Source: Nitrospirota bacterium (lineage in GTDB: Bacteria; Nitrospirota; Thermodesulfovibrionia; Thermodesulfovibrionales; Dissulfurispiraceae). Taken from it: DNA of 64,000 nucleotides. Every line of letters starts with the position of its first letter. The stretch's first letter is position 1. Position numbers and translations under genes: made by a program. The stretch is taken from positions 352,001 through 416,000 of the forward strand of contig CAVPZX010000005.1 in NCBI GenBank assembly GCA_963710375.1, given 5' to 3'. Below the pieces are notes generated by a model. The model saw nothing but the letters and a program-made list of their open reading frames with translations, did no database searches and had not been told where the DNA came from. Positions 8,168 through 57,657 of this stretch are shown here, piece after piece.

Positions 8168-9419
8168 TTCTTTATATAGCGCTTTCTATGCTGCGGCACT
8201 GGCCTTCCTGCTCCCACTGGAATATTTAAAGCGATCATCTGAATTTCGGAAGCGATGGCTGAGGGAACGCTTCGGCCTTTATAAGGGGAATAGGTTTAAC
8301 GGCCGGCCTATCTGGATCCACGCAGTTTCAGTTGGAGAAGTCATTGCAACCGTCCCGCTTATCGAAAAGATTAAACAGAGACATCCTTCACTTGAAATTC
8401 TCATTTCAACGGTTACCGACACCGGGCAGCAGGTTGCCCTGGAGCGGGCAGGGGCTTATGCTCGAATTATTTATGTGCCTTTTGACCTGCCTTTCGCTAT
8501 TAAGAATGCCCTGCATCATATCCGGCCGTCTGCCTTTATCATAATGGAGACAGAGTTGTGGCCCAATGTTATCAGGATTATGAAAGATAGCGATGTTCCT
8601 GTGATACTGATGAACGGCAGATTGTCCGAACGTTCATATAATGGTTATAAAAAACTCGATTTCTTTATCGGAAAAGTTCTCCTGAACATCAGTCTTCTCT
8701 GCGTGCAGGATGATATCTACGCCGGGCGATTCGGGAATCTTGGCGCGTTACCTGAGCGGATAAAGATCATCGGCAGTTTCAAGTTTGATACACGGCCCTC
8801 TTCAGATATTCCGGAATGGACTGAAGCACTCCGCGGTCCTGTTATAATTGCAGGAAGCACGCACGAGACCGAAGAGGAACTGGTGCTCGATGCCTATATA
8901 CGGTTAAAAGCTTACGAGCCCGGCCTTAATCTTATTATTGCTCCAAGACATCCCGGGCGTTTCAGGACTGTGGAGGAACTGGTAAAGAAAAAGGGCCTGC
9001 AATATGTGAAGCGATCGGAGTTCGCAAATAGTCAGGACTCTCAGGCTTCCGGGCTCGTCGTCATCCTCGACGTTATCGGGGAGTTGTCTGCCCTGTATGG
9101 CGCTGCCGATATTGCGGTCATGGGGGGGAGTTTTATCGAACACGGGGGTCAGAATCCTCTGGAGCCGGCGTTCTGGGGAAAAGCTATTGTATGCGGCCCC
9201 CATATGGAAAACTTTCCTTTTATGGAGGAGTTTTATTCGTGTAGAGGAGCGGTCAGGGCAGAAGGCCCCCGACTTTATAATGTCCTGAAAGAGCTGCTCG
9301 ATTCACCCGAACAAATGCGGAGTATGGGAAGCATTGCAAAGAAACTCTACGAGAAGAACTCAGGCGCTACAGAAAGGGCAATGGAACTAATAGAAAAATA
9401 TATAGGCAATGGGCAATAG
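8160..9419 (+). CDS. waaA: Kdo transferase
   Basis: WIHAVSVGE, ETELWPN, GGQNPLEPA motifs. Confidence 0.96.
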   Translation: MFNSLYSAFYAAALAFLLPLEYLKRSSEFRKRWLRERFGLYKGNRFNGRPIWIHAVSVGEVIATVPLIEKIKQRHPSLEILISTVTDTGQQVALERAGAYARIIYVPFDLPFAIKNALHHIRPSAFIIMETELWPNVIRIMKDSDVPVILMNGRLSERSYNGYKKLDFFIGKVLLNISLLCVQDDIYAGRFGNLGALPERIKIIGSFKFDTRPSSDIPEWTEALRGPVIIAGSTHETEEELVLDAYIRLKAYEPGLNLIIAPRHPGRFRTVEELVKKKGLQYVKRSEFANSQDSQASGLVVILDVIGELSALYGAADIAVMGGSFIEHGGQNPLEPAFWGKAIVCGPHMENFPFMEEFYSCRGAVRAEGPRLYNVLKELLDSPEQMRSMGSIAKKLYEKNSGATERAMELIEKYIGNGQ

Positions 9420-9503
9420 GCAATAGGTAAAGGCTATGAATACAGAAAATAAAAAACAATTTTTTATCTTTTGCCTATCGCCTATTGCCTATCGCCTATC
9501 GCC
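9403..9503. repeat. inverted short-tandem-repeat hairpin, 7-bp unit AGGCAAT
   Basis: TAGGCAATGGGCAATAGGCAATAGG ... GCCTATCGCCTATTGCCTATCGCCTATCGCC; left arm contains the waaA stop. Confidence 0.9.
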
Positions 9504-20741: not shown

Positions 20742-20828
20742 AAGGTTAAGGTTGAGGTTGAGACAGATAATGTATAAGGGATTTAACTAAAGTCTTTTTT
20801 TCTTAACCTTAACCTTAACCTTGACCTG
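20742..20828. repeat. inverted short-tandem-repeat hairpin, 6-bp unit AGGTTR
   Basis: AAGGTTAAGGTTGAGGTTGAG ... CTTAACCTTAACCTTAACCTTGACCTG. Confidence 0.9.
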
Positions 20829-20846: not shown

Positions 20847-21419
20847 GTGAGCAAAAAAGAAAAGTGTGATCATCTAATCTCTCATTACAGTAAGCTTATC
20901 GAATCAAACCCGAATGATTACAGGGCATACAACAATCGCGGCAACGCATACCAGAAGTGTGGGGAATATGATCTCGCTCTTGCCGATTACGATGGGGCCC
21001 TCGAGCTGAACCCGTCATTCGACCTTTGCTACATCAACAGGGGCAACACGTACCAAAAGACAGGCGATTACGAACGTGCAATCGCAGACTATGACAGAGC
21101 GATCGCGCTGAATCCGGAAAACAGCATGGCCTATAACAACAGGGGCTTTGTGTACATGTTAATGCAAAAAAACAAGGAAGCGGAGAGGGACATTAATAAA
21201 TCAATAGAAATCAATCCGAACAATATATATGCCCTGAACAGTATGGCTGAATTTTGTGCTGCCCAACAAAATGCACAGGAGGCGTGCAAATGGCTGAAGA
21301 AGGCCATTGACAAGGGATATAACAACTGGGGATACATCAAATCCTCCCAAACCTACGACAACATACGCTCCGCCGCCTGTTTCAAAGAAATACTGAAGGC
21401 AATAGGCAATAGGCTATAG
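20847..21419 (+). CDS. tetratricopeptide repeat protein
   Basis: Repeated AYNNRG..Y..A..DY..A..LNP units. Confidence 0.92.
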   Translation: MSKKEKCDHLISHYSKLIESNPNDYRAYNNRGNAYQKCGEYDLALADYDGALELNPSFDLCYINRGNTYQKTGDYERAIADYDRAIALNPENSMAYNNRGFVYMLMQKNKEAERDINKSIEINPNNIYALNSMAEFCAAQQNAQEACKWLKKAIDKGYNNWGYIKSSQTYDNIRSAACFKEILKAIGNRL

Positions 21420-21819
21420 GCGATGGGAAAAAATGGTTTCAAGGATTTGATTGTTTGGCAAAAAGCTAAAGCTCTTGCAGTTTATATTTACAAAATATCT
21501 GAAGAAGGATCTATAGGTCGAGATTTTGGTTTGAAAGATCAGATTCGGCGAAGCGTTGTAAGTATAGCGAGCAATTTGGCAGAAGGAGATGAACGCGATA
21601 CAGATAAAGAATCTGTGCGTTTTTTTTATATTGCAAAAGGATCACTTGCCGAACTGCAAACTCAGATCCAAATTGCTAATGAGGTAGGTTATTTGGAAAA
21701 GAACATTTATGAACAATGTGAGAAATGTTGTAAAGAATTGGGGAAAATGATAGGCAGTCTCATCAAAGCGAGAACGAAATCCAATAACCTATAGCCCATC
21801 GCCTATAGCCTATTGCCTG
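21397..21819. mobile_element. cassette of a four-helix-bundle gene bracketed by inverted 7-bp-unit arrays
   Basis: Perfect 24-bp IR: AGGCAATAGGCTATAGGCGATGGG (21404-21427) and CCCATCGCCTATAGCCTATTGCCT (21795-21818); mobility is inferred. Confidence 0.65.
21423..21794 (+). CDS. four helix bundle protein (23S rRNA intervening-sequence protein family)
   Basis: FKDLIVWQKA, DQIRRSVVSIASNLAEG, FFYIAKGSLAELQTQ motifs; visibly AT-rich relative to neighbours. Confidence 0.93.
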   Translation: MGKNGFKDLIVWQKAKALAVYIYKISEEGSIGRDFGLKDQIRRSVVSIASNLAEGDERDTDKESVRFFYIAKGSLAELQTQIQIANEVGYLEKNIYEQCEKCCKELGKMIGSLIKARTKSNNL

Positions 21820-21913
21820 TCTTTTTGTGTTTTTTTTCACATTTATGTAGTATTATTGCTACATTCTCTTCCAGGTACTGTTTTATTATTACTGCATATC
21901 CAAGTAGTTATGC

Positions 21914-22191: not shown

Positions 22192-23739
22192 GTGAAAAAG
22201 TACTTATCAATTCTTTTAGCTATGTTGTGTGTCTTCGGCTTTGCAGCCAGCGCTTTTGCTATGCATGCCGACATCCCTTCAGAAACAACGGCGGCCATAG
22301 CCCAAGGCAGTACCCAGATAACAATAAGCGGTCAAATCAGGGCTAGATACAATTGGCAGCACACGGGTTTTAACAGTAACGATAACCAAGTCGAGTCAGC
22401 TTATATGGATGAGCGCATAAGACTCGGCGTCCTGGCCGTATTGAGTCCGAACACAACCGGTTTTATTGAGCTTTCGAGCGAGGCCGATCCAGCTTCATCC
22501 GGCACAGCTTCGTATGATAATATGTATGGCGGTTCGGGAGGCACAGGCGTTGGAGGATCCGGCAAGTCTGATTCTTACGGCCTGGCTGGTGGAGTGGGCA
22601 ATGAGTTGAAGGGAACCGTTGCCATTCGTAACATGTGGATACTGTACAAAGGCACAGGCCTGCTCGGCGTGGAGTCTGGAATTAAGGTCGGTCATATGCC
22701 GATGAGCCTTGGCAGCGGTCTGTTCTTTGACCACACCTATTTTGGCGACGACGGTATTATTGCATACGTGTTCCCTGTCAAAGAGCTTGAGGTTGCCGGA
22801 GTGGTAAACATTGCAGAAGTGGATGGTATAAACAATCCTCCATTGGGTTCTGCATTAAACACATCCTTAAGCAATAAGGCCACCGGATATGTCTTATTGG
22901 CAAATTATAAACCAAGCAAAACCACGTCTATCAGTGGCGACGTAACTTTCTTTAATGTACAGAATGCCGGCGAGACGACCACCACTACTAACGATTTCGG
23001 CAGTATTCACCTTTGGAACTTTGCTCTAAGAGGCAACACCGAGGTTTCAGGCGTGAGACTTAAGATCGATGGTGAACTCCAGGCAGGAGACTTTTTAACT
23101 TCGTTTACTCCAAGCACGACCCACACCACCGTGCCTGCCACTACTTTGCACGGCTATGCAGTGCAAGGAGGCATAGGCTATACAGTTGATCCTGTAATGC
23201 TCGACCTTGAGGTTGGGTATGGCAGCGGTGACAGCGGCAAGAATTCGACCAAAGCTAACTCCTTCTATACTGCGGAGGGTCCGGAGTCGACCTTTGGCGA
23301 TCCTTACAGGTACAGCCATGGAGTACAAGGCCCTTATGTGTATAATTACCGTACCGTCAATGCCGCAGGCATCCAGTACGGCGGTCTTTCAAACACCATG
23401 TATGTTAGAGTCGGCGGCAATGCTGATCTAACAAAGGGCCTGAATTTTGATGCCGCATTTTTCTACCTTTCGGCTGCTAATGCAATCACATCATCAAATG
23501 TTGGTTTATACGGCTTTTCAGCCTCTAACGTAGCGGCCGCGGGATATAAGGCCAGCCATGACATAGGTGAAGAAATTGACGCAAAACTCACCTACAAACT
23601 CGACAAAGGACTTCAGACCTGGGTCGAAGGTGGCTACCTTTGGGCAGGAGACTTCTGGAAAGCAGTTTCAACAGTTACACCCGGACAGAGTCCGAGCAAT
23701 TGCTACACAGCAAGGACCGGTATACAGTTAGACTTCTAA
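22192..23739 (+). CDS. outer-membrane beta-barrel (porin-like) protein
   Basis: Signal peptide ASAFA, amphipathic beta strands, C-terminal GIQLDF. Confidence 0.75.
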   Translation: MKKYLSILLAMLCVFGFAASAFAMHADIPSETTAAIAQGSTQITISGQIRARYNWQHTGFNSNDNQVESAYMDERIRLGVLAVLSPNTTGFIELSSEADPASSGTASYDNMYGGSGGTGVGGSGKSDSYGLAGGVGNELKGTVAIRNMWILYKGTGLLGVESGIKVGHMPMSLGSGLFFDHTYFGDDGIIAYVFPVKELEVAGVVNIAEVDGINNPPLGSALNTSLSNKATGYVLLANYKPSKTTSISGDVTFFNVQNAGETTTTTNDFGSIHLWNFALRGNTEVSGVRLKIDGELQAGDFLTSFTPSTTHTTVPATTLHGYAVQGGIGYTVDPVMLDLEVGYGSGDSGKNSTKANSFYTAEGPESTFGDPYRYSHGVQGPYVYNYRTVNAAGIQYGGLSNTMYVRVGGNADLTKGLNFDAAFFYLSAANAITSSNVGLYGFSASNVAAAGYKASHDIGEEIDAKLTYKLDKGLQTWVEGGYLWAGDFWKAVSTVTPGQSPSNCYTARTGIQLDF

Positions 23740-40070: not shown

Positions 40071-40165
40071 AGCAGGCAGTAAGCAGTATAAGTAAGCAGT
40101 AGGCAGTAAATACTTCAGCAGGCAGTAAGCAGTCTACTGCTTACTTATACTCTTTACTGCATACT
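40071..40165. repeat. inverted short-tandem-repeat hairpin, 7-bp unit GCAGTAR
   Basis: AGTATAAGTAAGCAGTAG / CTACTGCTTACTTATACT, plus a duplicated TTCAGCAGGCAGTAAGCAGT. Confidence 0.8.
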
Positions 40166-40280: not shown

Positions 40281-40394
40281 TAGGCAATAGGCGAGAGGTT
40301 AAAGGCTAAAGGTAAAAGACAGAACACGGACATGCTTTCATTTATATTTTGTGCCTTTATTAACCCTTTAGCCATTTGCCTCTTGCCTTTCGCC
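40281..40394. repeat. inverted short-tandem-repeat hairpin, degenerate 7-bp unit AGGCWAW
   Basis: TAGGCAATAGGCGAGAGGTTAAAGGCTAAAGG ... CCTTTAGCCATTTGCCTCTTGCCTTTCGCC. Confidence 0.8.
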
Positions 40395-41561: not shown

Positions 41562-41595
41562 GACCCAGTGCCCATAGCCCATTGCCCATAGCCTG
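41562..41595. repeat. solo 7-bp-unit array (GCCCATW)
   Basis: GACCCAGTGCCCATAGCCCATTGCCCATAGCCTG with no partner arm nearby. Confidence 0.65.
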
Positions 41596-44239: not shown

Positions 44240-44246
44240 TGAAAAT

Positions 44247-44321
44247 CAGGTTAAGGTTAAGGCAAGCGAAGAAAAAAGTTCTTAATGTTTTTTACTTAAC
44301 CTTAACCTCAACCTTAACCTG
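44247..44321. repeat. inverted short-tandem-repeat hairpin, unit AGGTTA, between tRNAs
   Basis: CAGGTTAAGGTTAAGG ... CTTAACCTTAACCTCAACCTTAACCTG. Confidence 0.85.
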
Positions 44322-44331
44322 TCTTTTACAA

Positions 44332-57514: not shown

Positions 57515-57638
57515 AGGCTAAAGGCAAAAGGCTAAAGGGCAAAAGCTAAAGGATAAATAAGAAAAAAGAACTAAAAATTAGAAGTATGTTTTTCTTTATT
57601 TTTTTCCCCTTAGCCTTTAGCCCTGAGCCTTTTGCCTT
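57515..57638. repeat. inverted short-tandem-repeat hairpin, 7-bp unit AGGCWAA
   Basis: AGGCTAAAGGCAAAAGGCTAAAGGGCAAAAGCTAAAGG ... CCTTAGCCTTTAGCCCTGAGCCTTTTGCCTT. Confidence 0.85.
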
Positions 57639-57657
57639 TTTAATGATATAATCATGG

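Follow-up and report, generated by a model that had tools for sequence, protein, structure and literature searches.

A four-helix-bundle gene boxed by inverted heptamer arrays in a Nitrospirota genome: a probable gene-bearing form of a dispersed hairpin-repeat family

Genes of the PF05635 family framed by a terminal stem are known from 23S rRNA. The S23p intervening sequence (IVS) found in Coxiella burnetii is about 430 nt long and AT-rich, carries heptamer repeats just before the ATG, and varies in unit number between strains (PMC4990558); an ORF-bearing 23S rRNA IVS in Leptospira is cited in the same article. Another related organization is that of the REPIN/RAYT systems, in which a low-copy gene in extragenic position is flanked by its own repeats, and non-autonomous inverted doublets with variable spacers are dispersed in groups that are each tied to one gene (PMC3337134). 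Bare inverted heptamer pairs have been described in Xanthomonas (GGGAATC; PMC4692102) and in Beggiatoaceae (TAACTGA; PMC4679880), with the purine arm first, a preference for about four units, a location near stop codons and between co-oriented genes, and no link to a transposase; the main texts of both articles mention no helix-bundle or IVS gene. Last, the DGR accessory protein Avd is a pentamer that binds structured RNA without catalysis (PMC6182149, 10.1101/2023.10.23.563531), and in the DGR structure all five subunits touch one RNA stem-loop via flipped-out bases (10.1101/2023.10.23.563531). PF05635 itself has two solved structures and no function, and the heptamer repeats of bacteria have been described without a cause. 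In the open literature that we searched, we found no paper linking this family to dispersed repeat classes.

The cassette studied here resembles the first three of these groups in the characters just listed, and its protein is akin to Avd in fold and likely in its pentameric state. Both its form (known from rRNA IVSs, as in Coxiella; PMC4990558) and bare heptamer pairs (PMC4692102, PMC4679880) have precedents. It lies in a stretch of 64,000 nucleotides (hereafter, the window) of a 3.19-Mb Nitrospirota genome (G000). A perfect 24-bp inverted repeat (21404-21427 / 21795-21818), embedded in 7-bp arrays (21397-21421 and 21784-21818), brackets a four-helix-bundle gene, and A-rich and T-rich outer tails lengthen the stem to 43 nt with 79% complementarity (21385-21427 / 21795-21837). 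The ATG (21423) is inside the left arm, together with the stop codon of the upstream TPR gene (21417-21419) and what appears to be a Shine-Dalgarno-like stretch, and the TAG (21792-21794) is inside the array unit adjoining the perfect right arm. The GC content of the gene is 0.36, against 0.45 to 0.51 in four neighbours and 0.49 in the window. The boxing, the placement of both codons and the AT richness had been pointed out in a preliminary description of this DNA, and all of them hold. The inverted arrays around the gene are not a product of chance, as contig C5 has 151 short-period arrays versus 3 in a locally shuffled copy, the folded RNA of the cassette reaches -145 kcal/mol (z = -8.4), and the flank-pairing score of the gene is 48, with the 99.5th percentile of 2781 ORFs at 32. 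In a related strain, exactly two units (14 bp) are missing from the right arm, with the gap at 21790 (sequencing run X8).

Table 1. Coordinates of the cassette, its host genes and gene-less hairpins in the window
Feature	Position	Strand	Remarks
Left arm	21397..21427	+	4-5 purine-rich 7-bp units, class RGGYNAK; contains TPR stop and ATG of helix-bundle gene
Four-helix-bundle gene (PF05635/TIGR02436)	21423..21794	+	123 aa; clade loop motif AEGDERDT; XCC0516/BT_0352/Avd fold
Right arm	21784..21818	+	5 pyrimidine-rich 7-bp units inverted to left arm; contains TAG
Whole cassette	21385..21837	.	Includes outer A-rich and T-rich tails
Host TPR gene	20847..21419	+	Last codons and stop supplied by left arm; orthologs mark the slot in relatives
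Outer-membrane porin-like host gene, downstream	22192..23739	+	Context only
Gene-less hairpin, 7-bp class as boxed gene	9402..9503	.	Empty site with abutting genes in G002, G007 and G009; another class in G003
Gene-less hairpin, same broad 7-bp class as boxed gene	40281..40394	.	Between putative rplJ-like and rplA-like genes
Gene-less hairpin, same broad class as boxed gene, AAGGCTA subtype	57515..57639	.	6-mer class in G007 at this slot
Gene-less 6-bp-unit hairpin	20742..20827	.	Between tRNA-Val and TPR

The product of the gene is a clear family member (PF05635, 124 bits with a cut-off of 33.8; TIGR02436, 120 bits with a cut-off of 24), and it falls under the cut-offs of both Avd models (PF22296, 32.3 < 40 bits; NF033474, 36.7 < 80 bits). 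Its predicted model (pLDDT 92) was matched by Foldseek to XCC0516 (2GSC; TM 0.86), BT_0352 (2RLD; TM 0.79) and Avd (4DWL; TM 0.77 at 16% identity), in agreement with the fold shared with Avd that the preliminary description gives for the family. As the structure entries of the two homologs, 2GSC and 2RLD, have five chains each, the protein is likely a pentamer; a predicted complex of four copies gave a median of 0.11, with the mark at 0.42. The gene is under purifying selection (codon test, with locus L083 left out). No reverse transcriptase, transposase or nuclease domain was found in the domain listing of 66 longer forms of the protein, and none is encoded in the cassette; the absence of a linked transposase noted earlier is borne out. 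Many of these longer proteins are fusions by read-through into a pilin-like or surface protein downstream, the arm being translated as a linker (P0005, P0052, P0058, P0019 and others), and several of them are from Patescibacteria. In two others (P0039 and P0023), the helix bundle is a fusion partner that follows a portion of BREX PglX, a different one in each (1-297 and 906-1008 of the 1210 model positions), and these look as if cassettes had inserted within pglX.

The cassette departs from the IVS, REPIN/RAYT, MITE and DGR elements in defining characters of each. It shares with the IVS a terminal complementary stem around a PF05635 ORF with heptamer repeats; however, it stands between TPR and porin-like protein genes and not in rRNA, it is accompanied by hundreds of gene-less hairpins and many word classes, and its stem signature is weak. 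Seven other helix-bundle loci that were tested are outside rRNA too. At L184 (G016 C1:1520320 and 1736797), there are two equal-scoring helix-bundle copies with an internal TAA, one of which was checked with Rfam and lies outside rRNA. The one-gene-per-group organization of REPIN/RAYT is present, though five of eleven classes in G000 have no gene, but the gene codes for an Avd-fold helix bundle without the HUH/Y motif of a Y1 transposase, the arms are tandem degenerate 6- to 8-mers instead of palindromic REPs, and the same word is shared by close homologs from many phyla. As in MITEs, terminal inverted repeats surround a non-coding core and have been copied between unlinked loci; unlike in MITEs, a target-site duplication was not seen at four clean slots. 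Unlike in DGRs, the protein is below both family cut-offs, and neither a reverse transcriptase nor a template/variable repeat is found nearby or in the genome.

A comparison of homologs, proposed in the preliminary description, shows that the boxing is not restricted to this gene. We kept 80 loci from 116 homologs found across GTDB (53-79% identity), with hosts among Nitrospirota, deltaproteobacteria, Verrucomicrobiota, Omnitrophota, Brocadia, Betaproteobacteria, Clostridia and others. After dropping 3 edge loci, a flank-pairing score of at least 26 was reached by 66 of the 77 close homologs, versus 37 of 2781 control ORFs of G000, and by 35 of 41 PF05635 loci of the same class that had not been picked by clade. 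A same-strand gene precedes 65 of 76 cassettes. Two of four copies on cyanobacterial plasmids are boxed by inverted heptamers (L210 and L213, Nostoc plasmids) and the other two (L211 and L212) are not; the boxed genes, being in cultured cyanobacteria, are tractable test systems. The helix-bundle cassette had no match in 50,697 phage records.

The repeat word follows the protein clade. Nearly all members of the clade of the boxed gene carry an RGGYNAK-type word, and the other clades have other words of 6, 7, 8 or 10 bases (6-mer, 8-mer, GTGAA, CACAGAG, GGGTTCA, CAGA and TCAGC). Each clade also has its own motif after the conserved SNxAEG, in the loop between helices 2 and 3: DERDT in 71 of 78 members of the boxed gene's clade, FGRNHT in the 6-mer clade and WRKRRY in the 8-mer clade. 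The closest sister clade uses an 8-base version of the word and has YER replacing DER. On the protein tree, from which we left out 1 locus that had no hit and 4 cores that were short or frameshifted, class labels require 13 changes versus at least 21 in 1000 shuffles, a signal explained in part by labels shared among kin and by co-inheritance of gene and arms. Four-fold sites are saturated between the query and its clade (mean identity 0.26), with the core positions of the arms still at G97, G98 and A87%, which indicates that the match of word and protein is kept by selection and not only by recent co-transfer. Since related loci are not independent samples and the arm partly serves as a start signal as well, we take the tie between repeat class and protein clade as strong circumstantial evidence, short of proof of binding. 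Genomes that carry the gene are also rich in its word: the three carriers of the 7-mer clade gene, G000 among them, are in the top 6 of 161 genomes (four of seven initial hits belonged to the 8-mer sister clade, leaving three true carriers). Five array-rich genomes that we tested do not have the gene of this clade. For the Xanthomonas word, we looked at 80 of at least 120 loci; 69 of these had room for the gene, and in none did it follow the arm, a result that the excess of empties over genes, about 40 to 1, could itself account for. The clade-by-clade match of loop and word makes the function of PF05635 and the cause of the repeats directly testable by one binding assay, and if the protein does read its word, the long unexplained 6- to 8-base repeats of bacteria would gain a testable protein partner.

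G000 contains 513 arrays of period 6-9 and 234 called short hairpins (a few complex arrays being counted more than once), about 230 of them gene-less, which fall into at least 11 word classes. The empty hairpins of the boxed gene's unit type announced in the preliminary description near 9402 and 40281 are real, and there is another at 57515; the one at 40281..40394 stands between what we take to be rplJ-like and rplA-like genes. Between nusG-like and rplK-like genes, a right arm of the boxed gene's 7-mer class stands alone (window 41564-41593), and a compound AGCAGTA array (window 40076-40140) lacks a cognate gene in this genome. Six helix-bundle genes are above cut-off in G000, each at a different word, with no further, more divergent ones beyond these six. 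The four largest hairpin classes (65, 50, 34 and 21 of 234) have one gene each and five small classes have none; GxxExxY (TIGR04256), considered as cargo for the latter, is missing from G000. Only two of the six genes are neatly boxed (21423-21794 and L001), the other four being in compound arrays, and two (L002 and L005) have a flank score below 22. The number of units per arm peaks at 5 in four 7-mer classes and at 4 for the 6- and 8-mers. Within a unit, 3-5 positions reach 85% or more, the rest being free, and neighbouring units are identical in only 7-25%, so the arrays would resemble rows of binding sites more than a slippage microsatellite.

Hairpins are concentrated at gene ends. By crude ORF calls, they occupy 133 co-oriented, 26 convergent and 19 divergent gaps, versus a background of 824/200/302, starting at a median of 5 nt past the stop codon and ending at a median of 15 nt ahead of the next start. 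The upstream stop codon is inside an arm in 97 of 220 hairpins, and the purine-rich arm comes first in 228 of 234. In several 7-mer classes, every one of the three frames of the purine arm is closed by a stop codon (48 of 50 in the GTGAATA class), and therefore an insertion near a gene end would close the reading frame. Hairpin density is highest in contig C5 (12.4 per 100 kb versus 3.6-8.3).

The preliminary description had read the hairpins as empty or filled states of one type of mobile element, and orthologous slots, together with the boxing, support this. At the TPR-porin slot, one congener has a full helix-bundle gene that is non-orthologous (G009; AU test p = 2e-5), another shows that arm with its ATG where the contig ends (G001), and in a third only 30 codons of a gene are left, flanked by intact arms (G007). 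The remaining ones have an empty hairpin of another class (G004), remnants without a gene (G002, G005 and G006) or another array plus an unrelated long inverted-repeat element of about 200 bp nested in array remnants (G003, locus L009), so that five of the eight congeners with a TPR ortholog have no gene at the site. Among more distant relatives, 14 TPR orthologs were compared and all lack the gene at this slot, and no member of the 80-homolog set adjoins TPR or porin. Vertical conservation at the locus, which had been named as the observation that would count against a cassette, is thus not what we found. Gene retention is seen in two lineages, where the gene stays in one neighbourhood (31 loci, mostly Opitutaceae, and 14 Nitrospira), one point in favour of vertical keeping there.

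Other slots turn over as well. Congeners vary at the slot upstream of TPR (20742..20827): some have a 7-mer or 8-mer hairpin, some none, and G006 has a filled cassette where the others show empty hairpins of three classes. The slot at 9402..9503 is empty with abutting genes in G002, G007 and G009 and is taken by another class in G003, the one at 57515..57639 has a 6-mer class in G007, and up to five different classes occur at one slot within the genus. Slots used by G000 have a different class in 22 of 55 comparisons, and unused slots have an array in 11 of 80 (seven relatives, one region). A 6-mer hairpin between tRNA-Thr and tRNA-Tyr (window 44240-44330) replaces the encoded CCA; in G008 and G006 the CCA is all that this site contains, and G002 and G003 have a different class. 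The position between tRNA genes indicates that insertion is not tied to translation. Inspection by eye of the four slots whose empty orthologs are clean (window 9402, 44248, 53757 and 54482) showed no target duplication, although with relatives 80-95% alike a 2-bp duplication could be missed.

Whole empty hairpins, arms and loop, are common to unlinked loci in both orientations, and loops are similar in 51 of 3961 same-class hairpin pairs versus 3 of 15146 cross-class pairs. In one six-member family, identity is 0.86 in the loop, 0.95 at core positions and 0.63 at free positions, versus 0.38 in the control. We discarded a telomere-like mode of building arms at broken ends, given that each arm has been copied along with its loop. 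Deletion as the origin of empties has one clear case, the 30-codon remnant of G007; no hairpin loop of G000 matches a gene core, so most empties are not simple deletion products. As for enzymes, G000 (98.8% complete) has no PF00078 reverse transcriptase, and its sole Y1 (PF01797) transposase (C2:219441-220401; L140) ends in 24-bp inverted repeats of its own that bear no relation to the arrays. Among the control ORFs, the six top-scoring ones that were read included no transposase sharing array ends. Five ORFs of about 1065 bp with equal flank score (C2:32237, C2:264243, C2:630981, C2:1008681 and C8:11770) look like one multi-copy insertion sequence, of which one copy was read.

The mobility through an RNA stem suggested in the preliminary description is not supported. 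In this scenario, which we consider improbable, the arms pair in the transcript, RNase III excises the cassette as in rRNA IVSs, and the freed RNA is mobile. The long stable stem of this copy, the same-strand gene ahead of most cassettes and the binding of RNA by Avd are consistent with it, as is the Coxiella 23S IVS, in which the protein family and heptamer repeats recur and RNase III cuts a stem of 28 bp (PMC4990558). However, there is no clear excess of G·U on the coding strand, with 79 G·U versus 124 A·C mismatches in 92 filled cassettes and 105 versus 83 in 133 empties. Register pairing of units in six hairpin classes is 0.15-0.42 versus 0.13-0.40 with shuffled order, without any excess in three of them, which makes the perfect 24-bp stem of this gene atypical. 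Besides, G000 lacks a reverse transcriptase, the excised Coxiella RNA is rapidly degraded (PMC4990558), and no excised form was found in DNA contigs or sequencing runs; joints in the DNA runs that skip the gene were rejected as excision, having only 24-26 letters on a side and corresponding to other empty hairpins. RNase III may still cut such stems as a side effect. Even less credible, and strongly disfavoured, is a neutral by-product, in which slippage microsatellites or terminators make up the arrays and carry the gene along. Unit number does vary by whole units and array-rich genomes without the cognate gene exist, but adjacent units are seldom identical and combine fixed and free positions, the clade-word match outlasts the saturation of silent sites, and the purine arm nearly always comes first.

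The main rival, although rather unlikely, is a domesticated regulator, a protein that reads its word on intercistronic mRNA and tunes decay, termination or translation, with arrays turning over by ordinary recombination and gene conversion and no dedicated mobility. The preference of hairpins for transcribed gaps near stops, often with the upstream stop in the arm, fits this role, as do the conserved core positions of the units, the purifying selection on the gene and its permanence in two lineages, and a regulatory role has been suggested for other heptamer repeats (PMC4679880). Against it, one slot switches among five classes or none within a genus, a poor fit to gene-specific regulation, elements also occur between tRNA genes and in both orientations, and in two proteins the helix bundle follows differing portions of PglX, as though it had entered the gene. 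Regulation and a reader-plus-repeat model are compatible and not mutually exclusive.

Boxing across phyla, the matching of clade and word, one gene per word in G000, slot turnover and hairpin copying seem to us best accommodated by a reader-plus-repeat system organized like REPIN/RAYT. We lean toward the gene being the gene-bearing form of a dispersed hairpin-repeat family, with a protein that likely reads its own 6- to 8-base word and likely acts as the adaptor that lets gene-bearing and gene-less copies colonize gene boundaries. A pentameric ring could bind about five cognate units on a purine-rich single strand, roughly one per subunit, which matches arms that mostly count 4-5 units, some positions being fixed and others free. 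The bound protein would then recruit a host enzyme to copy or insert the hairpin, whether it carries the gene or not, at the ends of genes; as the cassette encodes none, our guess is a host repair or recombination enzyme that cuts and joins in trans. The protein could also repress its own translation, as its ATG sits in the last repeat unit. If the protein does drive the spread, this would be a mobile-element family without a transposase of its own, remodelling about one gene boundary in twelve in this genome, and also a natural library of small sequence-specific nucleic-acid binders. More tentatively, PF05635 as a whole may be a large family of modular repeat readers, pentameric rings in which the helix 2-3 loop sets a word of 6-10 bases read at one unit per subunit, driving transposase-free mobile hairpins behind many unexplained hexa- to octamer repeats, and rRNA IVSs would be copies that landed in rRNA loops.

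Regarding their genomic surroundings, gene-bearing cassettes often split surface-polysaccharide operons, such as rfbF-rfbG, rmlB-rmlA, kdsA-kdsD and wzt (G000 C5:200000-290000; loci L001, L004, L005, L006, L039, L047, L050 and L071).
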